Notes: a model not told the origin generated them from the sequence alone. A DNA stretch of 64,000 bases from Acidimicrobiia bacterium (GCA_046331125.1 JAXLRL010000019.1:8136-72135); one strand, 5' to 3'. Positions 4-64,000 are shown, counted from the stretch's first letter. Numbers and translations are program-made.

Positions 4-591
4 GTGCTCGGCGCCGGCGACGCGCAGGCCTCGGTGAAGGAATTCCTCCACCAGTTCATCAAGGGCATCCGGCTCAACAAGGAGCTTCCCGAGCACCACC
101 ACTGGGTCGACGGCATCAACGAGCTGCAGATCCGCGAACGCGAGCACCTGTCGAACGCCGAGCTGGTGGCGCAGCTCGAGACCGTCGGACCGAAGGCGGT
201 GAAGGGGCGCTGGGGCACTCCCCTGCCAATGCGTCACCTGCCCGTCGACTTCGGCCCGCCCGTCGGCTGGAAGCCGTTGAAGTACCTGCTCGACGTCGGC
301 TTCACCCGCGACGTGTTCGCGCACCGCGTCGACATCTGCGCGGCACTCGGCCGCGAGATGGAGGCGACCGCCGAGCACGACGGCCGCCTCGTCGCCGACA
401 TGGTCGGCGAGTGGGGCGACCTGCACTACCTCGCCTACGACCTCGTGCTCACCGGTCCCGCCGGCGGCACCTTCCGCCGCGGCGAGGACCAGCGTGAGCA
501 CGTCGAGATGGACGCCTTCGAATTCGTGCGCGTGATCTCCGGTCGCCTTCCCGACCACGGCATCGTGCGCTCGATGTCACTCCCCCTCTGA
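4..591 (+). CDS. mycothiol-dependent maleylpyruvate isomerase family / DinB-like protein, C-terminal part (5' end outside window)
   Basis: The ORF is open to the window start and translates cleanly (…FTRDVFAHRVDICAALGREMEATAEHDGRL…FEFVRVISGR…). From memory it resembles actinobacterial TIGR03083-type proteins. The next gene's AAGGAG RBS follows it. Confidence 0.5.
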   Translation: MLGAGDAQASVKEFLHQFIKGIRLNKELPEHHHWVDGINELQIREREHLSNAELVAQLETVGPKAVKGRWGTPLPMRHLPVDFGPPVGWKPLKYLLDVGFTRDVFAHRVDICAALGREMEATAEHDGRLVADMVGEWGDLHYLAYDLVLTGPAGGTFRRGEDQREHVEMDAFEFVRVISGRLPDHGIVRSMSLPL

Positions 592-623
592 ACCGTTCGG
601 GCACCACACCAAGGAGCATCACC

Positions 624-1353
624 ATGGACACTCGCGTCGACGAGATCAGCGACGGCATCTTCCGCCTCTCCACCCTCGTGCCCGACATCGGGCCCGACGG
701 CTTCACGTTCAACCAGTTCGTCGTGCGCGGCGAGCAGGAGTCGCTGTTGTTCCACACCGGACCGAAGGCGATGTTCCCGCTCGTGAGCGCGGCGGTGGAG
801 AAGGTCACCCCCCTCGACTCGCTGCGCTGGATCACGTTCGGCCACTTCGAGGCCGACGAGTGCGGCGCGATGAACGACTTCCTCGCCGTCGCGCCCAACG
901 CTCAGGTCGCGCACACCGGCATCGGCGTGATGACGAGCGTGAACGACCAGGCGTCGCGTGAGGCGCTGCCCATGGCGCCCGACACCGTGTTCGACCTCGG
1001 CGGGAAGCGCGTGCGCGGCATCGACACGCCGCACGTGCCCCACGGCTGGGACGCGCACGTGCTGTTCGAGGAGACCACCGGCACCCTGCTGTGCGGCGAC
1101 CTGTTCACGCACCTGGGTGACGGTCCTGCGCTCACCAGCAACAACGTGCTCGACGCCGCGGCCATGGCCGAGGACATCTTCGGCGCCACCGCGCTCACGC
1201 CCAACACCGCACCCACGATCCGCGCGCTCGCCGACCTGCAACCAACGACGCTGGCGATCATGCACGGCTCGTCCTACACCGGCGGCACGCCCCGGGGCGC
1301 TCCTCGCCCTCGCCGACCTCTACGAGCAGCGCCTCCTCTCCCCCGTCACCTGA
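624..1353 (+). pseudogene. MBL-fold metallo-hydrolase (di-iron/ODP-like), one frameshift near 1285-1295
   Basis: The sequence reads cleanly from MDTRVDEISDGIFRLSTLVPD… through HVPHGWDAHVLFEE… to MHGSSYTGG. The long ORF then turns Arg/Pro-rich, while another frame continues ALLALADLYEQRLLSPVT* with its stop at 1353. The shift sits in a CCCCGGGG run. Confidence 0.6.
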
Positions 1354-1844
1354 CGAGGGACGCGCGCAGCTACTTCTCGGCGGTCGCCTTGAAGCGCGGC
1401 GAGGGTGGCGTCGATGCCGTCGCGGGTGTTGTCGACGGTGCCGTCGAGGTAGGCGACGACGTCCATGTCGGGCGCGACGGAGTGCATGAACTCGCCGTAG
1501 CCGGGGAGCACCTGCCACGACTCGGTGATCTTGCAGCCGTCACCTTCCGCCGCGAACGTGTAGCTCCAGCGCACGAGCTCGTGCTGGCCGTCGGTGCCGC
1601 AGTTGATGAAGGTGAACTCCTCGCCGGGGATGTCGGCGACGACACGGCAGTGCGTGCTCCAGCTCATCTCGGGCGTCACGTTGTCGCCGATGAACGTGGT
1701 GCGGTCGTCGTCGGTCCAGTGCGCCGACTTCACGATGGGGCTGAACTCGCCGACGCGAGTCACGTCGGCGACGAGCTCGTACACCGCGTCGGGCGAGGCG
1801 TTGATCGAGATCGAGCCGGAGTGGTTGAACTTCGAGAGATCCAT
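1320..1844 (-). CDS. SRPBCC (cyclase/dehydrase-like) family protein; C-terminal about 15 codons possibly frameshifted
   Basis: MDLSKFNHSGSISINASPDAVYELVADVTRVGEFSPIVKSAHW… is typical of the SRPBCC fold. An alternative frame ends …LKATAEK* at 1370, which suggests a 1-nt indel near 1392. Confidence 0.55.
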   Translation of the reverse strand: MDLSKFNHSGSISINASPDAVYELVADVTRVGEFSPIVKSAHWTDDDRTTFIGDNVTPEMSWSTHCRVVADIPGEEFTFINCGTDGQHELVRWSYTFAAEGDGCKITESWQVLPGYGEFMHSVAPDMDVVAYLDGTVDNTRDGIDATLAALQGDRREVAARVPRQVTGERRRCS

Positions 1845-1873
1845 GGGCGGGGACCCTAGATCAAACGCGCGTG

Positions 1874-2683
1874 TCAACGGCGGGGTCGCTCACCACCGAT
1901 GGTCCCCCGATGCAGCGTGCGGGGCTCGCCGGGTGCGGCGTCGCCGACGGCGCAGTGCTGCGTCGCGATGTTGTCCCAGATGAGGAGGTCACCGACGGTC
2001 CAGTTGTGGCGCCACGTGATCTCGGGGCGGGAGGCCCGCGCGAACAGGTACTGCAGCAGCGGCGCGCTCTCCTCCTCGGTCCACCCCACGAAGCGAGTGG
2101 TGTAGTTGGCGTTCACGAAGAGCGCCTTGCGGCCGGTGCGGTGGTGCGTGACGACGACCGGGTGCTCGGTGGTGACCTGCTCGTGAGTGAGGCCCTGGCT
2201 GCTCGCGAGGGTGGTGCCCTCGTGCACCGCGTCGAGCGGGTCGAGCGTGGCCTTCAGCCCCTCGGACAGCCGCTCGTACGCCTCGTACTCGTTGGCCCAC
2301 ATCGTGTCGCCGCCGCGTGACGGGATCTCGCGGGCGAGCAGGATCGAGGCGAGGGGCGGGTCGGCCATGTGGGTGGTGTCCTCGTGCCACACGGTCGTGA
2401 GCTCGTTGGGGTCGTAGATGCGCATGATCCCCGGGTGCCCCTCGATCGACGGCACGTACGGGTGCACCCGGATCTCGCCCCACAGGCCCGCGAGCTCGAG
2501 CTGCTGCGCCGAGGTGAGGTCCTGCTGCCCGGGCAGGAAGATCACGAGGTGCTCGTCGAGCGCCTCCTTGAGCCGGTCGACCAGCGCCTGGTCGAAGCCG
2601 TCGGCGAGGCGGACCCCGTCGATGCGGGCGCCGAGGGTGCCGCCCAGCGGCGTGACCGTGAAACCGGTGGTCGTGGTCGTCAT
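1874..2683 (-). CDS. TauD/TfdA family Fe(II)/2-oxoglutarate dioxygenase
   Basis: The ORF is intact: MTTTTTGFTVTPLGGTLGARIDGVRL…, a WHEDTTH (HxD iron ligand context), and …LLIWDNIATQHCAV… . The length fits the family. Confidence 0.8.
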   Translation of the reverse strand: MTTTTTGFTVTPLGGTLGARIDGVRLADGFDQALVDRLKEALDEHLVIFLPGQQDLTSAQQLELAGLWGEIRVHPYVPSIEGHPGIMRIYDPNELTTVWHEDTTHMADPPLASILLAREIPSRGGDTMWANEYEAYERLSEGLKATLDPLDAVHEGTTLASSQGLTHEQVTTEHPVVVTHHRTGRKALFVNANYTTRFVGWTEEESAPLLQYLFARASRPEITWRHNWTVGDLLIWDNIATQHCAVGDAAPGEPRTLHRGTIGGERPRR

Positions 2684-2757
2684 GGGCGCCAGCCTCGCCG
2701 GGAGGCGCACATGACGGCCAGGGACCTAGGTCACTTCGTATACAAAATCAGCTGAGT

Positions 2758-3599
2758 TCAGCCGGGCAGCGGGAGGTTCTCCGCCCCGCCGACGATCATC
2801 GCCGCGAACTCGGTGAAGTCGGGGCCGGCGCGGAGGCTGTGGCCGCCGTCGACGTTGATGATCTGGCCGGTGATCCAGCGCGACTCGGCGCCGAGCAGGA
2901 AGCGCACGAGATCCGCGACATCCTCGGGCTCCCCCACGCCGTTCATGGGCGTGTTGCGGATGTAGCTGTTGTAGACGGAGCCGTCGCGCGGGACGTTCTC
3001 CATGATCTCGGTGGTGATGAAGCCGGGGCGCACCGCGTTGAAGCGCACACCGACCGCGCCGTACTCGTCGGCCGCGTTGCGGATGATCTGCTCGAGCGCA
3101 CCCTTGCCCGCGGTGTAGGCGCCGAACCAGCGGTGGGTCTGGTGGCCGGCGATCGACGACATGCCGACGAACGAGCCCTTCGACGCCTGCAGACCTGTAG
3201 CGCGATAGCCACGCACAGGAAGGTGTGCCGGCTCGGCGTTGAGCTCGAGCACGACGAGACTCGTCGGTGTCGGAAAGGGCGTAGGGCGCCATGCCGCCGC
3301 CACCGTTCGCGACCACACCGTCGAGCGTGCCGGTGGGCTCGGTGGCCGCGGCGACGGCGCGACGTCGTCCTCCTTCGTGACGTCGCCGACGACGTAGCGG
3401 ATGCTGCCGCCGTTGCCGCGAGCTTCTCGATCTTCTCCGCCGGCACGGCGAGGATGGCCTCGGTGCGGCCGCAGATCGTGACCGCAGCGCCGTCGGCCGC
3501 GGCCTGGGCCGCGCAGGCGGCGCCGATGCCCATACCGCCGCCGGTGACGAGCACCCCGGTCCCCTTGAGTCCGCCGGAGGCTTTCCTGGTCGCGGGCAT
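2758..3599 (-). pseudogene. SDR family oxidoreductase, at least 3 frameshifts
   Basis: The start MPATRKASGGLKGTGVLVTGGGMGIGAACA carries the TGxxxGIG motif. YTAGKGALEQIIRNAADEYG (YxxxK), NAVRPGFI and ITGQIINVDGG lie in other minus-strand frames. Confidence 0.65.
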
Positions 3600-3639
3600 C
3601 TTGCCTTCTCCTCTTCGATGTGCGTGGACGGGCAGTCCT

Positions 3640-4856
3640 GGCCATGTCGCGCGCCGTCGATCTTGAGCTGGAGGATCTGCTCCGCCGTGTAGCCGAACTC
3701 GGCGAGCACCTCGTCGGTGTGCTCCGAGAACTGCGGGGCCCGCGTGGTGGTGGCCGGGAGGTCTCGTCGAACTGCCGGATTTGGTGAGCAGCCCGCGGGA
3801 TGCCGTCGGCGTCGGTCTCCAGGGCGAAGTAGCCCATCTCCCGCAGCTGCGGGTCGTGAGCCACCTGCCGCTGTCCTGGATGACGGTCCGCTTGCCCTCG
3901 AAGGCGTCTGGAAGCAGTCGATCCACTCCTGGAGGGTCCGCTTGCGCATCTCGTCGGCGACGATGAGCGCGCCTTCCTGCGCGTTGGCGATGAGCTTCTC
4001 GGTGGTGTCGAAGCGCGGTCGTCGATCAGGTCCTCGCGACCGAGGTGGCGGCAGAGGTCGGCCCAGTAGCGACCGGGCTGCAACATCGCCAGGTAGATCC
4101 ACTGCTGTGCGTCCGGACGTCTCGAACGGGCCGACGACCGGGTTCACCAGCGCCGGGCAGCTCGTTAGGCGGCCACACCCAGGGCTCGCCGCTCATCAAC
4201 GAGATGTCGACCGACAGCTTGCCGCAGTAGGCGCCGACGCTCAGCAACGACACGTCGACGACCGACGCCTCGCCCGTCATCGCGCGCTTGAACAGCGCCG
4301 CGGCGATGCCACCCACCGTGGTGAGGCCTCCGAGGGTGTCGCCGTGCTCGGCGCGGGCATGTTGAGCGGCTTGCCCAACTCGGCGGCGCGTGACGCCGAG
4401 CGCCCCACCGCGGCACCAGTACGGCACCCGGAGTCGAAGCCGCCTTGCGCTTCATCGCCCTTGAAGCCGATGGCGCTCCCCGCGCGTAGATGATCGACGG
4501 GTTGACCGCACGGATGTGGTCGACGTCGATGCGCAGGCGTTCGCGCGTCGGGGAGGAAGTTGGTGAGGAACACGTCGCCTCCTCCACCATCCGGTACAGC
4601 ACGTCGAGTCCGCCAGGGTCGATGTCGAGCCCGATACCGCGCTTGCCGCGGTTGGCGTGTCCATGATCGGCGAGAACGAGCCCTCCGCGTAGCCCGCCGG
4701 GCCCACACCGACCATGCCCCGCTGGGCGTCGCCCATCGTGGAGTGCTCGATCTTGAAGACGGTGGCGCCCCAGTCGGCGAGGGTGGCCCCCGCTGACGGC
4801 ACGTAGGTGAACTGGGCGACCTCGACGACCTTGACGCCGGCCATGGGGAGAGACAT
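3640..4856 (-). pseudogene. family III CoA-transferase (CaiB/BaiF type), many frameshifts; 3' end approximate
   Basis: From the ATG at 4856 the sequence reads MSLPMAGVKVVEVAQFTYVPSAGATLADWGATVFKIEH. DHANRGKRGIGLDI, VDVSLLSVGAY and FSEHTDEVLAEFGYTAEQILQLKIDGA follow, scattered over all three minus frames. No clean stop could be identified. Confidence 0.55.
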
Positions 4857-7729: not shown

Positions 7730-8475
7730 ATGAGTGAACGGTTCGCAGGAAGGTCGTGATCGTCACCGGCGGGCACCGGCACTCGGTCTCGCCTACGCCG
7801 AGGGCTTCGCCGCGCGAGGGGCGTGAGCGTGGTGCTCGCCGACATCGACGGCGACGCCGCGCAGGCCGCGGCCGAGCGCATCGCGGCGACGGGTGCACGG
7901 GCGATCGGCACGGCCACCGACGTCGCCGACGAGGACTCCGTGCGCGCCATGATGCGCGGCGGCGGTCGGCGCGTTCGGCGTGGACGTCCTCGTGAACAGC
8001 GCGGGGCTCCACCTCGGCAAGTACAACTCGACGACTCGACCTGCCGATCGCCGACTGGCGCCGCATCTTCGACGTGAACGTGCTGAAGCGGTGATCTGCT
8101 CGCGCGAGGCGCGCGTCGATGGCGGCGCGGTGGCGGCGTGATCCTCAACCAGGCGTCGGTCGCGGCCTGGGTGCGCGGCCGGCTCGTACAGCGACGAAGC
8201 CGGCGCTCACGAAGGCGTGACGATGTCGCTCGCGAGCGAGCTCGCCGGCGACGGCATCCGGGTGCTGGCGGTGGCGCCGGAAGCGTTCATGTCGACGGTG
8301 CAGGCCGGCCTCGAGCCGCACAACAAGGAGCTGGTGCTCACCGGGTCAGCTCACGCAAGGAGTTGGGGACCCCCGACGACCTGTGCCGCGTTCGTGCTCT
8401 TCCTCTGCTCCGACGAGGGTCCTTCGCCGCGCGACCACCTGCGCGTTCGGCGCGGGCTTCTCGAAGCGCATCTAG
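7730..8475 (+). pseudogene. SDR family oxidoreductase, multiple frameshifts
   Basis: Recognisable segments are spread over three frames: MSERFAG.VVIVTGG, VVLADIDGDAAQAAAERIAATGARAIGTATDVADEDSVRAMM, VDVLVNSAGLHLGKY, MSLASELAGDGIRVLAVAP and FVLFLCSDEG. Confidence 0.55.
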
Positions 8476-58522: not shown

Positions 58523-58939
58523 TCATCGCGGCGACCGTAACCGGGCATGCACCAACACTCCGCTCCCGATCCCCGCGGCGAACGCGAGCAGCAACCCGAG
58601 GGTGTCGAGCGACTCGGCGGCTATCCCGACGAGGGTGAACACCACCAGGCCGACGAACACACCGAGGACGGCACTCACGGTGCCCCGACGGAACGTCCGC
58701 ACGCCGGCGCGCCGGTTGCGGACCATCACGTAGGCCACCCGGCCGGCCAGCATCGCCACCGCGAGGCCGATCGCGCACCAGCCGGCGGCGATCTCCCAGT
58801 AGCTCGGCTCGGGGTACCGGTAGGCGTTGCCGATCGCAACCATGCCGGTGCCGATCAGCAGCAGGACCGCCGCGAGCGCGGCCACGAGTGCGCTCGCATT
58901 GCCGGAGACCAGTGGCCGCTGCCCCGCACGGGACGTCAT
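58523..58939 (-). CDS. hypothetical integral membrane protein (about 4 TM helices)
   Basis: 138 aa, with hydrophobic helices ALVAALAAVLLLIGTGMVAIG, WEIAAGWCAIGLAVAMLAG, VSAVLGVFVGLVVFTLVGIAA and LGLLLAFAAGIGSGVLV. Confidence 0.5.
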   Translation of the reverse strand: MTSRAGQRPLVSGNASALVAALAAVLLLIGTGMVAIGNAYRYPEPSYWEIAAGWCAIGLAVAMLAGRVAYVMVRNRRAGVRTFRRGTVSAVLGVFVGLVVFTLVGIAAESLDTLGLLLAFAAGIGSGVLVHARLRSPR

Positions 58940-59280
58940 GTGGACATCGTGGGCGGTTCGGGCTCCGCCGACGAGGGGCCGACGTCATGAACCGGTGCAC
59001 CGGATCCGCTTCCACGCGTCCGGCCCGGAGAATTGGAGAGCACTTAGCGAGTTGAGCGGACTGCTTCAGGCACAAGGCATGCAGGGACCCGGAGCGGTGG
59101 CAGTGCGACGCAGATTCCCACGGATTCTGAGCTCTTTTCCCACGCCTCCGCCCAGGCTTTCCCACGACCAGACCGCCGTGCGGTCTGGGGCGCACGGACC
59201 GTCAGCACGGCCTCGTTGGGCGGTGAGGAACCAGGCTTGCCCCTGACCTGCGGGCGCTTGGTCGCCGATACGCTTCGTTC

Positions 59281-59451
59281 ATGACATTGCGACAGGGTCA
59301 TGGCCCGTACACGCGCCCAATGCGGTGTGAGGCGTGCGATGAACGCTTCTCGGCACCGGGCGACGGGGCCGGCGCAGCGTACGACGAGGTCCATTGCCCG
59401 GCGTGCGGATCGGCACAGTGCGTCTGGATCTGGGAGAACGAGGACCGTTAG
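59281..59451 (+). CDS. possible 56-aa zinc-ribbon protein (below the 60-aa cutoff of the supplied ORF track)
   Basis: My own translation: MTLRQGHGPYTRPMRCEACDERFSAPGDGAGAAYDEVHCPACGSAQCVWIWENEDR*. It has two CxxC pairs 25 residues apart. No convincing SD is present, and the start could be the internal Met. Confidence 0.3.
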   Translation: MTLRQGHGPYTRPMRCEACDERFSAPGDGAGAAYDEVHCPACGSAQCVWIWENEDR

Positions 59452-59547
59452 CACAATCCCATTAGCTCGCAATGCCCAGGAGCAGCGAAACCCTCGCCGG
59501 CAATCGGACGCGTGTCCCTACCCTGAGAGGCGGACGAGGAGGCGAGG

Positions 59548-61233
59548 GTGGAAGCGGAACGGGCAGCTGAAGTCGCACGGCTCTTGGACGAAGCCGCACT
59601 TCAGGAATGGGACGACAACGTCGCCGTGGCAATCGAACGATTGCTTCCCGATGATGACGGCGCCGCGCTCGGACTGGCCTTCCGCTTCTACGTCTCGCAG
59701 GAGGACGGCAGCCGCCATCGCTGGCGTCCGCTCTTGCGCGTTGACCCGAACGGCAATCAGGTCGAGACCGGTCTGGCCGACCTCGACGAACCCGTCATCC
59801 GCACTTGGGAAGCGGTCGTCAGTCTCGCCGTGCACCCGCGCGTCCGCGCACGCCTTCATGATCTTCTGTTCGAACGACGCTCTGGTGACGTCGGGGCGCA
59901 CGCACGCGAGGCGATCAACAGCTATCTCACGGTCGCTCTCACGCCGAGCTCGACCGTCGCGGAAGTAGACGCGATCACGCGAGCCTTCGACTTGATCGCA
60001 CTCACCCGCCAGCCGGACTTCCTTCCCGAGGCCACCAACGCTGCCATCACAGCCGTCGATGGCGCCTTGGCGTCCACGGACGCCAAGCCGGGCGTGTCCT
60101 TACGAATCCTGGAAGTCCTCGTCGATGCCCGCATCGCGGACGGGCGTGTCGACGACCGACTCCTGCGCTGTCGCACCGCTTATCCCGACCAGTGGAACAC
60201 CGAGCACACGATCGGCCTACAGCTCCGCAGAGAAAGCGACGAGGGCGCTCGAGCGGAGCTGCAACGAGAACGGGTGCTGGCTCTATTCACCGAAGCCGAC
60301 GCTTCAGAGCCCATGGTTGCCGTGTCTCATCTCGCGCGCGCCGCGGCGTTGGCGAGAGAGCTCGCAATCTCGGACCTGCACGAGGAAGCGGTCAGGAGAT
60401 TGCAGGGCGTCGATCCGACCAGCCTTTCCATGCACCGCATCGAAACGCCGATCGAGATCCCGCGAGCCGAAATCGAGGCCTACCTCGACCAGTTGCTTGC
60501 AGCACCAACCTGGCTCGAGGCGGTCGTCAGCCATGTCCTCGCGGGACCACCAAGCGGCAACGTGCACCGCAACCGTGCCACCGTTCAGGAGCTCACGTCC
60601 GAGTTCCCCTTGCAGAACTTGTTCCCCACCGTGCGAGTCGGCGCTGATGGGCTGCCCCGATCCACCGCCGAAACTCCGGAGGAGCGCGCCGAAGCGAGTC
60701 TCGCTAACCATGAGGTAATGGCGATGCAACTCAGCGCGATGGTGCTCGTCGAACTGCTCGAGCGCGCAGGGGTGAAGTTCGGAGAACCGCGGCCCGAAGA
60801 TCTCGCCCCAATGACAGAGCACGCAAGCCACGTCGACCAGGCGACTGGCGATGCCATCGCTCGGGTGATCCGACGCTTCTACCAAGCCGATCCCGAGGCT
60901 GCGGCGTACACGGGCATCCCGCTCATCGAGCGACTCACCCGCAACCTCCTGCTCCAGCTGCGGGTCCCCTTGTTCCGTGTCGAGCGGGACAACAAGCCCG
61001 GCCAGTACCCCGGGATGGGTGCGCTGCTCCACGAGCTCGGCCGTTCCGGTCTGGATCCCTCCTGGCATCGGTACCTGTACGTGCTCCTGGTGGCACCGCA
61101 CGGCTTGAATCTCCGCAATGAAGCGATGCACGGCTTCGCTCCCGAGCTTGGCGCTGGCCATGCGGCGCTGGTGATCGCCGGGTTGCTGTACCTCGCAGTC
61201 CAGACCGTTGGCCCGGTAGGTCACGATGGGTGA
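59548..61233 (+). CDS. 561-aa alpha-helical protein of unknown function with C-terminal HEPN-like R-N-x3-H-G motif (resembles DUF4209-type proteins from memory)
   Basis: A strong SD (GAGGAGG) lies 6-8 nt before the GTG at 59548. The ORF is uninterrupted in a lower-GC region with less GC3-biased codons. The motif LNLRNEAMHGF (R523…H528, DNA 61114-61131) is followed by a hydrophobic helix. No P-loop is present. Confidence 0.65.
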   Translation: MEAERAAEVARLLDEAALQEWDDNVAVAIERLLPDDDGAALGLAFRFYVSQEDGSRHRWRPLLRVDPNGNQVETGLADLDEPVIRTWEAVVSLAVHPRVRARLHDLLFERRSGDVGAHAREAINSYLTVALTPSSTVAEVDAITRAFDLIALTRQPDFLPEATNAAITAVDGALASTDAKPGVSLRILEVLVDARIADGRVDDRLLRCRTAYPDQWNTEHTIGLQLRRESDEGARAELQRERVLALFTEADASEPMVAVSHLARAAALARELAISDLHEEAVRRLQGVDPTSLSMHRIETPIEIPRAEIEAYLDQLLAAPTWLEAVVSHVLAGPPSGNVHRNRATVQELTSEFPLQNLFPTVRVGADGLPRSTAETPEERAEASLANHEVMAMQLSAMVLVELLERAGVKFGEPRPEDLAPMTEHASHVDQATGDAIARVIRRFYQADPEAAAYTGIPLIERLTRNLLLQLRVPLFRVERDNKPGQYPGMGALLHELGRSGLDPSWHRYLYVLLVAPHGLNLRNEAMHGFAPELGAGHAALVIAGLLYLAVQTVGPVGHDG

Positions 61234-62344
61234 CGCCCCGGAGCTGCCCTGGATCTGTGCGCTTCCGTACTTGCCGGTTCGCGAGCCGGTGGAGTTCGCG
61301 GGCTGGTGGCTTGGGCCGGTCACAGCATTCGCAGGACCGTGGCGTGACCCACAGTTTCACGATGCCGTTGGCGAGTTCCTCGACAGCTTCCGCACCGCCA
61401 GCGGCCAACCGGTCAAGAAGCCTGCGTTGCTCGTTCGCCGAGAGACGGGGGCGAATGGCGTTGCGCCGACCCTCGCAGAGTTCCACGCGCTCGAGCTTGC
61501 GATCGGCTTGGCCACCATCGACGCGAATGCGTTCTGGAGCCCCGAGAACGAGCAGGACGGCTACCGCATCGCGACCGCCGATAACGCGGACCTGTGGGTG
61601 CAAAGCATCGACGTGGAACACCGGCGCATCACGCTCGAGCGGGGACTTCGGGTTCGAACCATTGCGGGCGGCCACCGGATCGGGACCGACGACTTCTTCA
61701 TCCCTGCACCGCTCGAGTTGCACCTGCCATCCGGTGTTGGACTGGATGCCGACGTCCTCGAAGCCGTCTACCGCACCGCACTCGAGCAGGGAGACGAGCC
61801 TCGTGCCGAGGCTGTTCTGGTCGCCATCCGCTGGTTGTTGAAGACGTGGCTCAACTCGACGAGCGTGTCGATCGAGGATCGCATCGTGCTGCTGAAGATC
61901 GCGTCCGAAGCGCTCACCGGCAAGGACAAGACCCATGAAGGTGGCGCGCAGCTGGTCGCACTGTTCGCCTCAGCTGGGGAGCAACCGGGTGAGGGCATCG
62001 GCACCGACGGGCTGCTGTGGCAACCGGACGAGCGGCGGCTCAAGCGGGTCTGGTCCAATCGCAGCGGCGAGAAGAGTCACTCCGAGCTCACGCTGCTCGA
62101 ACACTGGTACGGCGCACTGGGAGATGCCCGCAACAAGATCGTGCACGAAGGCGGAGCCTCGTCACTCGTCTACGAGGAAGACTCGCCGTACGCGGGGCCG
62201 TTCGTCGAGATCGGTGATCGCGTCATCCGGGAAGCGATCACCGTGGAGCTCGGGAACTTGGGCTACCCCGCCGTCTGGCGGCGTGGACTGACGCGGGCGT
62301 CGTTCCGCATGTGGGAGCGGCTCTCTGCAGGAGACGTCGAGTAG
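61226..62344 (+). CDS. 372-aa protein of unknown function with HEPN-like R-N-x3-H-E-G motif
   Basis: The ATG overlaps the upstream stop by 8 nt (ATGGGTGA). The ORF is uninterrupted. The motif reads LGDARNKIVHEGG (R302…H307, DNA 62129-62146). I did not recognise the N-terminal about 280 aa. Confidence 0.65.
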   Translation: MGDAPELPWICALPYLPVREPVEFAGWWLGPVTAFAGPWRDPQFHDAVGEFLDSFRTASGQPVKKPALLVRRETGANGVAPTLAEFHALELAIGLATIDANAFWSPENEQDGYRIATADNADLWVQSIDVEHRRITLERGLRVRTIAGGHRIGTDDFFIPAPLELHLPSGVGLDADVLEAVYRTALEQGDEPRAEAVLVAIRWLLKTWLNSTSVSIEDRIVLLKIASEALTGKDKTHEGGAQLVALFASAGEQPGEGIGTDGLLWQPDERRLKRVWSNRSGEKSHSELTLLEHWYGALGDARNKIVHEGGASSLVYEEDSPYAGPFVEIGDRVIREAITVELGNLGYPAVWRRGLTRASFRMWERLSAGDVE

Positions 62345-62541
62345 CCCATCATGGGGTGGTCACAGTGCGCGCGCAACGTGCAGCCCACCCGGACTTGACG
62401 AAAGATCCATTCGCGGCACGCCCGCTCCCCCGCTGCCGTGCCGGCCACGCTGCGTGAGCAGCAGCGCCCGGCGGGCCGTGTCGACCGTGGCGGGACGGTG
62501 GCCAGGGTGAGGCTGTCGCAGCCCTGTCGTAATGTCCAGTC

Positions 62542-63384
62542 GTGGCCGCTATGGGAACGTTACGCATCGCTACCTGGAACCTCAGATGGAGTGGCGGCGC
62601 TGCGACCGTGGAGCGAGAGGCCGACTTGCTCGCGTCGAGCGACTGGGATGTCGCGCTGCTCCAGGAAGTGAATTCGAAGGCGTGGGCTGCTGTGTCCAAC
62701 CTCGAGCGCGTCAGTGGAGCAGTCAGTGCCTTTGACGACGGGTTCCCAACGTTGGACGGAAAACGGCCTCATGGCGTCGCCCTGCTCGTCCGCGATGGAC
62801 TCGCCCTGACCGATCCCGAACCGCTCACGGGCTTGCCGCGCCCTGGCCGTGGCATGGGTGCGACCGTCGAGGGCTGGGATGTGCCGATCAGCGTCTGCAG
62901 TTGGCATGCACCGAACGCCGCGGCCAGCGGACCAGCGATCAAGATGCAGGGCTACCTCGCCTTCCTCGGCTGGATTGCCCGTCAACGAGCGGCGACCGTT
63001 GTCGGGTTCGATTCGAATCACTGGGAGACGAGCACCGAACTCGACCTGACCTGGCCGAGCGATCCAGCCCACGGCTGGTATCTCGAGCAGCGATTCTTCG
63101 GCGCCACTCCGCCTCACGGTCTCCGCGACGCGTACCGCGATTACTTGCGATCGAACGACGCCGAGTACCGACGGCTTCGTGAGACGCTGCCTCCAAACGG
63201 TCCCCTCGCGATCACCTACACCCGAGGGTCGAAACAGCGACCGACACCAGACCGTTTTGACTACGTGTTCATCTCCGAGGATTTCAAGTGCGCTGGCGTC
63301 GATCATCGATACGACGCATCTCTCGACGCGGGAAGTGACCATGCACTCGTGATCGCCGAGCTGGCCCTCGCCGGGTCCAAGTGA
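62542..63384 (+). CDS. endonuclease/exonuclease/phosphatase (EEP) family protein
   Basis: LRIATWNLRW (N), ALLQEVN (E), GFDSNHW and the C-terminal GSDHALVIAEL (D-H) match the EEP catalytic blocks. The start is GTG 62542 or ATG 62551. A TAATGT hexamer lies 6 nt upstream of the GTG. Confidence 0.8.
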   Translation: MAAMGTLRIATWNLRWSGGAATVEREADLLASSDWDVALLQEVNSKAWAAVSNLERVSGAVSAFDDGFPTLDGKRPHGVALLVRDGLALTDPEPLTGLPRPGRGMGATVEGWDVPISVCSWHAPNAAASGPAIKMQGYLAFLGWIARQRAATVVGFDSNHWETSTELDLTWPSDPAHGWYLEQRFFGATPPHGLRDAYRDYLRSNDAEYRRLRETLPPNGPLAITYTRGSKQRPTPDRFDYVFISEDFKCAGVDHRYDASLDAGSDHALVIAELALAGSK

Positions 63385-63436
63385 TCGCTGCCGCATGCGC
63401 ACCGACGAGTCCTCACAGCACGGTTAGGGTCCCGAC

Positions 63437-64000
63437 GTGATCGAGTACACGGAAGGGATGGCCGTCGACGATCAGTTCGAGCTCGTGGACCGGCTTGGAG
63501 CTGGTGGCTTCGGCACCGTCTTCCGAGCTCGGAACCGCCTCGACGGACGCGACTACGCGATCAAGTTCGTCAAGAGCGACGATCCAGATGCAGTGCGACG
63601 AGAGTTCGCACCGCTGCGAGCGATCGATCATCCGAACATCGTCAAGGCGCACTGGGCAGCTCGCACGAAGGACGGCGTGTGGTACATCGCCTTCGACCTG
63701 GTCGAAGGCACGCGGCTGCGCGAAGAGATCGAGGTTGCGGGGCCGATGCCGACTCTGAGGGTCGCCGAAATCGGCGATCAGCTGCTCGATGCGTTGGCGG
63801 CGCTGCACCCTGACGAGGAGCGACTTGCCGCACTTCACAAAGGCACCATGACCGATGGCGAGTACGAGGAGCGTCAACGCATTGAAGCAGCGGGTCTCGT
63901 CCACCGCGATTTGAAGCCCGAGAACCTCATCCTCTGCGAGGACAACACCCTCGTACTCGTTGACTTCGGCATCGCGTCACGCGCCGGCACACGTCGCGTC
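63437..64000 (+). CDS. Hanks-type Ser/Thr protein kinase, N-terminal catalytic domain (3' end outside window)
   Basis: This ORF is not in the supplied track because it runs off the window end; I translated it myself. It carries GAGGFGTVF (G-loop, 63497-63514), YAIKF (Lys codon 63563-63565), HRDLKPEN (63902-) and VDFG (DFG, 63962-63970). An in-frame TAG lies at 63425-63427. The start is GTG 63437 or ATG 63458. Confidence 0.85.
   Translation, partial: MIEYTEGMAVDDQFELVDRLGAGGFGTVFRARNRLDGRDYAIKFVKSDDPDAVRREFAPLRAIDHPNIVKAHWAARTKDGVWYIAFDLVEGTRLREEIEVAGPMPTLRVAEIGDQLLDALAALHPDEERLAALHKGTMTDGEYEERQRIEAAGLVHRDLKPENLILCEDNTLVLVDFGIASRAGTRRV

Follow-up and report, generated by a model that had tools for sequence, protein, structure and literature searches.

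The subject of this analysis is a pair of adjacent genes, here called gene A and gene B, at positions 59548 to 62344 of a 64,000-nt stretch of DNA from an Acidimicrobiia bacterium (GCA_046331125.1 JAXLRL010000019.1:8136-72135), the whole of which is referred to as the window. A preliminary description, made from the sequence alone, had proposed that the two genes encode an obligate heterodimeric ribonuclease (RNase) of the HEPN superfamily, to which each protein contributes one R-N-x3-H motif. The open reading frames (ORFs) of 561 and 372 amino acids, the 8-nt overlap between them, ATGGGTGA, and the motif residues R523/H528 and R302/H307 were all found where that description had placed them. 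The features of the pair are as follows; models of the two proteins were obtained with AlphaFold2 (AF2).

59536-59542, + strand: GAGGAGG, a Shine-Dalgarno-like sequence 5 nt ahead of the GTG of gene A, from the sequence.
59548-61233, + strand: gene A, an ORF with a GTG start encoding 561 amino acids; the architecture assigned to its product from Pfam, PADLOC, AF2 and Foldseek is DUF7380, then an all-alpha middle of helices resembling TPR/solenoid repeats, then, at the C-terminus, a HEPN domain of the DUF4209 (C6orf70/ERMARD) type.
59773-60015, + strand: DUF7380 match in A, residues 76-156 (Pfam).
61042-61146, + strand: DUF4209 match (HEPN core) in A, residues 499-533 (Pfam).
61114-61131, + strand: R523-N-E-A-M-H528 of A, the predicted catalytic HEPN motif; position confirmed, conserved in the family.
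61226-61233, + strand: 8-nt overlap of the two genes, comprising the start codon of B and the stop codon of A, from the sequence.
61226-62344, + strand: gene B, an ORF with an ATG start encoding 372 amino acids.
61226-61735, + strand: N-terminal alpha/beta domain of B, residues about 1-170 (AF2 secondary structure).
61748-62326, + strand: C-terminal helical, HEPN-like domain of B, residues about 175-367 (AF2 helix order and a weak HEPN_Apea match).
62129-62146, + strand: R302-N-K-I-V-H307 of B, the predicted catalytic HEPN-like motif, from its position and its conservation in the family.

The N-terminus of B lines up with the N-termini of its homologs from the first residues on; therefore, the start of B at 61226, and with it the overlap, is credible. 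Exactly one R-N-x3-H motif is present in each protein: in A it is RNEAMH (residues 523-528), in B RNKIVH (residues 302-307). All six-frame ORFs of the window with a length of at least 150 amino acids served as background for the motif; the strict form R-N-x3-H occurs 4 times in these 56,273 residues, and about 0.03-0.04 occurrences are expected per protein. For the loose form, R-x4-6-H, about 8 occurrences are expected per 372 amino acids, and this pattern is uninformative by itself. Since the R-N-x3-H motifs are conserved across both the A and the B families, as described below, we consider that the two motifs are not due to chance.

Protein A matches Pfam DUF7380 with an E-value of 8e-8 (32.7 bits, cut-off 27) and Pfam PF13910, DUF4209, with an E-value of 3.8e-6 (27.3 bits, cut-off 22.3), which agrees with the earlier suggestion that it is of the DUF4209 type. 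It also matches the PADLOC model PDC-S39 (PDLC05012) with an E-value of 8.2e-19, residues 71-538 being aligned with profile positions 85-582 of 615. PDC-S39 is a single-gene phage-defence candidate of PADLOC, and the match spans almost all of A. Proteins identical to A and B are recorded at NCBI from a metagenome-assembled genome labelled Acidimicrobiia bacterium; the one identical to A bears the name 'DUF4209 domain-containing protein', and the nearest relatives share 33-45% identity with A. Among 21 A-family sequences (homologs of 32-44% identity), R523, N524, H528 and G529 are invariant, and the motif near the C-terminus reads L/F-R-N-E-A-L/M-H-G. DUF4209 is the C6orf70 (human ERMARD) family, which was assigned to the HEPN superfamily and predicted to be catalytically active (Anantharaman et al. 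2013, PMC3710099). The bacterial members of this family include TPR fusions and were placed in operons related to restriction-modification (R-M), and the eukaryotic C6orf70/ERMARD relatives are predicted membrane proteins (PMC3710099). On these profile matches, we concluded that A is a genuine DUF7380 and DUF4209 protein, and that it is an unexceptional representative of a candidate family already known.

The AF2 model of A is all helical, with a mean predicted local distance difference test (pLDDT) score of 85.8. Its C-terminal helices comprise residues 490-499, 504-514, 522-527, which carries the motif, and 536-551; this order in the model is compatible with a motif at the end of HEPN helix 3. 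A Foldseek search of the model against the PDB gave only weak, generic TPR/solenoid similarity, and direct sequence search of A against PDB chains gave nothing useful. The last helix of A, AALVIAGLLYLAVQTVGPV (residues 539-557, window 61162-61218), begins about 10 residues after the R-N-x3-H motif and has a mean Kyte-Doolittle hydropathy of 1.88 over 19 residues, which exceeds the classical transmembrane threshold of 1.6; the hydrophobic stretch is kept in homologs. This helix may be a buried fourth HEPN helix or a C-terminal membrane anchor. The earlier statement that neither protein has a transmembrane segment is accordingly doubtful for A.

Protein B gave no match in Pfam, PADLOC (E<=1), NCBIfam or the PDB sequences. 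By a word-indexed search 35 close homologs were retrieved, and by an exhaustive hidden Markov model search the family was extended to 612 representatives of 50%-identity clusters at E<=1e-3, 392 of them at E<=1e-10. The family comes almost wholly from uncultured organisms, and the relatives that were looked up are unnamed metagenome proteins. We concluded that the B family is fairly large and unannotated, without a model in Pfam, NCBIfam or PADLOC 2.0, and that it is the moderately novel part of the pair. The profile check that had been suggested earlier came out differently for the two proteins: A matches PDC-S39 and DUF4209, and B matches neither the PADLOC nor the Pfam library.

The motif of B is strongly conserved within its family: R302 is present in 153 of 154 sequences, N303 in 150 and H307 in all 154, and in an alignment of 97 family members (22-54% identity) R302 and H307 are the sole invariant columns. 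Together with the invariance found in the 21 A sequences, this bears out the expectation that the Arg and His residues would be conserved in homologs. E228, located on an upstream helix, is Glu in 156 and Asp in 9 of 166 sequences. The strongly conserved residues of B further include W203, N210, R219, K224, W265, W294, G324 and R335, and, in the N-terminal domain, P14, L16, W27, W39, N101, T117, N120 and G140.

Some family members differ in length from B. Two remote relatives, P0164 (740 amino acids) and P0202 (569 amino acids), have in common an N-terminal extension of about 270 residues, with no Pfam match and the pattern FEDQLQ..TRRQFL.EAFK.DLDKV..GE.FR.RN..LW..., and a group of members of 450-530 amino acids carries about 120 additional C-terminal residues. 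Such extensions may represent fused domains and so offer a clue to function. No remote B relative has an A-like domain, and the idea that B occurs fused to such domains was rejected on this ground. In two marine-metagenome contigs of identical sequence (L002, 6827-8281; L003, 1804-3258) the B homolog is split: in L002 the ORF ends at 7981 and the tblastn match runs to 8281, which suggests a frameshift, due either to decay into a pseudogene or to an assembly error.

The AF2 model of B has a pLDDT of 92.2 and a predicted template modelling score of 0.92. In its C-terminal domain, the helices 216-231, which includes E228, and 236-252 are followed by an insert with a beta-hairpin (271-289), the helix 290-308, at whose C-terminal end the R-N-x3-H motif lies, and the helix 326-344. 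In the published description of the HEPN domain, four helices form a bundle, the third helix ends in the motif, helices 2 and 3 are often separated by an insert, and an acidic residue upstream of the motif is conserved; the motif itself is given as Rx4-6H with a polar residue (N, D or H) after the Arg (PMC3710099). The helix order predicted for B fits this description. The N-terminal alpha/beta domain gave no Pfam match with its consensus and no Foldseek match in the PDB or BFVD; we infer that it is a sensor or regulatory domain.

Weak profile matches of the B family point in the same direction as the model. The top Pfam match of the B-family consensus is HEPN_Apea (E 0.019 over the full length), and the matched region runs from the E228 helix through the motif. 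Matches at E<=1 among the 97 family members go most often, and by a wide margin, to PF18739, HEPN_Apea (10 members), and HEPN_Cthe2314 and HEPN_RiboL-PSP are each matched by one member, weakly and below threshold. Any B-family member matches at E<=1 a total of 8 PADLOC models, 3 of which contain HEPN; CARF_HEPN_CSX20 and RTasHEPN, with 2 members each, are the top two by member count, CARF_HEPN is matched by 1 member, and HEPN-containing models thus make up 5 of the 10 weak PADLOC member matches. The profile of the 97 sequences gave against the PDB only a spurious 45-residue match to the docking domain of an erythronolide synthase. We concluded that the C-terminal domain of B is probably a HEPN domain that has diverged far, its affinity to the Apea-like family being a distant one. 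The preliminary description had called both proteins HEPN-like; for A this is confirmed by the DUF4209 match, and for B it is probable from the invariant motif and the sub-threshold HEPN matches.

A different explanation is that B is not a HEPN RNase, its Arg and His serving another chemistry or binding, and/or that the genes are not related to defence, being for example toxin-like or housekeeping RNA-processing factors on mobile DNA. It is favoured by the absence of any profile or fold match of B above threshold, and we found in the literature no functional test of the A or the B family. Against it, the motif has the exact HEPN form (R, a polar N, x3, H) at the canonical helix position, the weak matches to HEPN_Apea and to HEPN-containing PADLOC models are those just given, and the contexts of the genes are consistently defence or mobile-element loci, as shown below. 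We consider this explanation unlikely.

To ascertain whether A and B travel together, about 17 loci were inspected from the A and the B sides, the remote B relatives among the 612 clusters lying outside this survey. The A-side loci were L004, L006, L007, L018, L019, L020 and L021, and the B-side loci were L001, L002/3, L008, L009, L010/11, L012/15, L013, L014, L016 and L017; co-occurrence was judged by tblastn or from the gene table, and for one further contig, that of P0021, from the gene table only. The results showed that B is present in none of the 7 distinct A loci and A in none of the 10 distinct B loci, and likewise not on the P0021 contig. In the 327 nt that follow the closest A homolog, B sequence is absent. 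In the 7 loci, the A homologs are solitary, with no conserved partner. A search for relatives among the viral contigs of IMG/VR returned none of either A or B, and no B relatives were found on plasmids. Comparison of the A-family profile with the B-family profile over the full length revealed no relationship; when only the HEPN regions were compared, an 11-column stretch at the motif was aligned, with a pairwise E-value of 0.052. Because the HEPN regions of A and B align only over these 11 columns, a shared dimer interface is not expected. Judged from these comparisons, the HEPN domains of A and B belong to different families that are inherited independently.

These results bear directly on the reading with which the analysis started, namely that A and B are obligate subunits of a heteromeric RNase whose single composite site is made up of R523/H528 and R302/H307, the overlap matching the expression of the two. 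The 8-nt start/stop overlap is real, both proteins carry a conserved R-N-x3-H motif, and HEPN proteins as a rule have composite sites assembled across the interface of a dimer (PMC3710099; bioRxiv 10.64898/2026.01.26.701840), all of which speaks for such a heteromer. Against it stand the failure to find A and B together in any other locus examined, from either side, the modelling of the A family by PADLOC as a single-gene candidate, the occurrence of B-family genes beside many different genes or alone, and the restriction of the HEPN similarity to the 11-column motif match. Overlapping stop and start codons are, moreover, common between co-directional genes and imply no complex. We regard the obligate heteromer as the least probable of the explanations weighed here. 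The co-occurrence of homologs had been set beforehand as a check, and none was seen; nor is there support for an undescribed two-gene system, the A family being already catalogued as the single-gene PDC-S39 and B having no conserved neighbour. As to the overlap, which had been taken to imply stoichiometric co-expression, it indicates co-transcription and possible translational coupling, and the physical association of the products is not shown by it.

The surroundings of both genes are of the defence type, with SIR2, TIR-like, R-M and GmrSD/HNH genes near the homologs. In a 5-Mb genome, the A homolog has SIR2_2 upstream and penicillin amidase downstream. Of two contigs with A homologs, one carries GmrSD/HNH and the other integrase, relaxase and R-M genes. 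On plasmids of Rhodococcus, Arthrobacter and Streptomyces, the A homologs are accompanied by insertion sequence elements, R-M genes and a Swt1-family HEPN gene. On the Arthrobacter plasmid pJ340-69 (L020, 7574-8632), the A-family gene lies within 1.1 kb of the Swt1-family HEPN gene, with a type II R-M pair and a TIGR02391-family gene alongside; this is a further case of different HEPN genes that cluster without fixed pairing.

The neighbours of B are just as varied. Directly upstream of the B homolog and on the same strand we found a PDC-S65 SIR2 gene in L008 (190-nt gap), a gene for a TIR-effector-like protein in L009 (146-nt gap) and a gene for a PDC-M36A-like protein of 497 amino acids (PADLOC 7e-17) in L001 (4-nt overlap); in L014, an unannotated 334-residue ORF overlaps B by 4 nt. 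Near one B homolog there is a PLD and SNF2 helicase gene, and the surroundings of others include RES-Xre, NERD, McrBC and integrase genes, Tn7-like transposition genes (L009), relaxase, type IV secretion system genes and another SIR2 protein (L010, where the gap to the neighbour is 800 nt), and a DDE transposase (L012). In L016 and on the P0021 contig the neighbours of B are divergent or convergent. An all-versus-all BLAST of ORFs of at least 120 amino acids within 4.5 kb of B, discounting B itself and ORFs that overlap B in other frames or on the opposite strand, revealed no neighbour family common to distinct B loci. We take these varied neighbours, among which SIR2, TIR, PLD-SNF2, R-M and toxin-antitoxin genes recur, as the signature of a gene residing in defence islands or mobile elements. 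The L001 genes, at 62-3823, form an apparent three-gene operon in which the B homolog is the last gene, the PDC-M36A-like gene the second, and the first encodes a helix-turn-helix and Peptidase_M78 (ImmA/IrrE-like) regulator. B is thus tightly coupled here to another gene than in the window.

The same neighbourhoods might be read in another way, in which B-family proteins, as sensor or as second effector, are the conserved component and the neighbouring effectors that team up with them are interchangeable, as in modular defence systems. In several loci a different defence-type gene does lie directly upstream of B on the same strand, namely A here, with the 8-nt overlap, the PDC-M36A-like gene, the TIR-like gene and the SIR2 gene, to which the overlapping ORF of L014 may be added. 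Such an arrangement is at odds with L016 and the P0021 contig, which have no co-directional neighbour of B, with the wide gap in L010 and with the transposase near L012. PDC-S39 and PDC-S65 are, besides, single-gene candidates that stand alone elsewhere, B retains an invariant catalytic-type motif of its own and so would itself be an effector, and unrelated defence genes normally cluster in defence islands. We consider interchangeable partnership improbable, and somewhat more so than the explanation in which B is not a HEPN RNase.

The reading that we favour, and which we hold to be probable with moderate confidence, is that A and B are two autonomous single-protein modules of HEPN-type RNase that lie adjacent and are co-transcribed in a defence island of lower G+C content. 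HEPN proteins typically dimerise, two Rx4-6H motifs thereby forming a composite, metal-independent RNase site (PMC3710099; bioRxiv 10.64898/2026.01.26.701840). The mechanism that we propose is drawn by analogy with ApeA, PrrC and RnlA. A and B would each homodimerise via the HEPN domain, the two R-N-x3-H motifs of the dimer forming one metal-independent RNase site; the remainder of the protein, helical repeats in the case of A and the alpha/beta domain in that of B, would hold the enzyme off until a cue derived from infection appears; and this cue would lead to cleavage of cellular or phage RNA, either tRNA or mRNA, and hence to translation arrest and abortive infection. The co-transcription of the two genes would then be a simple stacking of two defences. 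What the analysis established is the gene structure, the family to which A belongs, the conservation of the motifs, the order of secondary-structure elements in B, the lack of co-occurrence and the defence-island setting; the RNase activity, homodimerisation, trigger and anti-phage phenotype of A and B are inferred.

Several observations weigh against this reading or loosen its support. For the two proteins themselves, the C-terminal domain consensus of B matches HEPN_Apea with an E-value of 0.0033 and 18.3 bits, under the gathering score of 24.4; no profile match of B lies above a curated threshold, which leaves its HEPN assignment unproven; and Foldseek, run with the whole B model against the PDB and BFVD, gave no match at E<=0.001 (best E 0.69, in the PDB). 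As to the literature, no mention of DUF7380 was found in the papers searched, DUF4209 is discussed only by the 2013 HEPN survey, and for PDC-S39 there are only inventories, with no experimental test found. As to the locus, a scan of 58,800-63,500 found no sigma-70-type promoter and no terminator on the + strand; the single terminator-like site in this region lies on the minus strand inside gene A, the chance expectation being 1.9. Since the scan gave neither a promoter nor a + strand terminator, the operon structure is deduced from the overlap alone. The extent of the locus survey, with the remote B relatives outside it, also counts here. Finally, the 8-nt overlap is compatible with a functional link in this lineage. 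On such a link, the pair could be a lineage-specific, coupled two-HEPN operon, newly formed and caught at its origin, in which the proteins make up a mixed-site hetero-oligomer or one licenses the other; we think this very improbable, only a shade less so than the obligate heteromer. It is more likely than such an operon that the B proteins make up a new family of anti-phage HEPN nucleases, each acting alone and equipped with a sensor domain of unassigned fold, a family that is absent from the defence catalogues searched.

Turning to the surroundings of the pair in the window, the G+C content (GC) falls from about 0.70-0.73 (about 0.71) to about 0.63-0.67 (about 0.65) from around position 59,000 to the window end. 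This low-GC stretch, about 59,000-64,000, suggests acquired DNA, with an island ending beyond the window. Neither a tRNA gene nor an integrase nor a flanking repeat was found within the window, and the repeat search gave no element boundaries. Two further ORFs close to the pair on the same strand are as follows.

59281-59451, + strand: small ORF of 43-56 amino acids, about 100 nt upstream of gene A.
62542-63384, + strand: 280-residue protein of the Endonuclease/Exonuclease/phosphatase family (Pfam Exo_endo_phos, 8.9e-11).

The product of the small ORF contains two CxxC pairs in the arrangement ...YTRPMRCEACDERF...(x19)...CPACGSAQC, and its best Pfam match is Zn_ribbon_8 (FmdB-like), sub-threshold at an E-value of 9e-4. 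As a conserved third component this zinc-ribbon ORF was rejected, being missing near the A and B homologs in all other loci. The Exo_endo_phos gene lies 197 nt downstream of B in the same lower-GC stretch and has no PADLOC match; on the P0021 contig, an Exo_endo_phos gene (weak match) is located about 3.4 kb from the B homolog.

Abortive-infection immunity has repeatedly made use of HEPN nucleases that consist of one protein, and ApeA demonstrates that the non-HEPN part of such a protein can sense small molecules produced on infection. If B protects against phage, the HEPN proteins known in defence would be enlarged by a new family and probably also by a new sensing domain, and a gap in the tools for defence annotation of Actinomycetota and Acidimicrobiia would be filled. 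A would lend itself well to testing the PDC-S39 candidate and the bacterial counterparts of human ERMARD. The heterodimer first proposed would be remarkable for a HEPN RNase, but the comparative evidence is not in its favour.

Among the known systems, ApeA offers the closest comparison by profile for B. ApeA consists of one polypeptide, in which an N-terminal region precedes a C-terminal HEPN domain; it uses HEPN for dimerisation, assembles beyond the dimer, cuts the anticodon loops of tRNA and is activated when a ligand binds to the pocket formed where the N-terminal domain faces HEPN (bioRxiv 10.64898/2026.01.26.701840). Ec2ApeA is mostly alpha-helical and comprises an N-terminal domain (1-198), a Mid domain (199-309) and a HEPN domain, which together extend beyond residue 550 (bioRxiv 10.64898/2026.01.26.701840). 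B resembles ApeA (PF18739) in that one chain combines an N-terminal part unrelated to HEPN with an R-N-x3-H motif of the HEPN type in its C-terminal part, in its defence-island setting and in having HEPN_Apea as its best, though weak, Pfam match. It differs in its 372 amino acids with an alpha/beta N-terminal domain, as against the three-domain, mainly helical ApeA, and in having no Foldseek match to any PDB chain and no matched model in PADLOC, a library that covers known as well as candidate defence systems. B was therefore rejected as a member of the ApeA family proper, the HEPN_Apea match being sub-threshold, a PADLOC match lacking and the architecture unlike that of ApeA.

For A, the counterpart is the C6orf70/ERMARD family (PF13910, DUF4209, renamed EMARD_N), with which it shares the domains, the motif and the helical-repeat body. 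Like the bacterial C6orf70 members described before (PMC3710099), A is found among genes of defence and R-M type, and it is unlike the other members of the PDC-S39/C6orf70 family only in the HEPN-like gene that overlaps its stop codon.

The HEPN toxins and abortive-infection proteins HepT-MntA, AbiD/F, RnlA/LsoA and PrrC are like A and B in the Rx4-6H motif and in their defence or mobile-element context, and HEPN dimerisation with a composite site is expected of them as it is of A and B. Neither A nor B matches the profiles of these families. Neither adjoins an MNT nucleotidyltransferase, an antitoxin-sized partner or an ABC-ATPase/Type Ic R-M partner, in which they differ from these systems. 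A HEPN-MNT or other toxin-antitoxin pair was considered and rejected, there being no antitoxin-like partner; a minimal nucleotidyltransferase domain was found neither in the two proteins nor in those flanking ORFs that were scanned.

In Cas13, two non-identical HEPN domains complete one active site, which is the arrangement that a heteromer of A and B would imitate. Both HEPN domains of Cas13, however, are held in one polypeptide and are co-inherited, whereas the A and B families appear to be inherited independently of each other.

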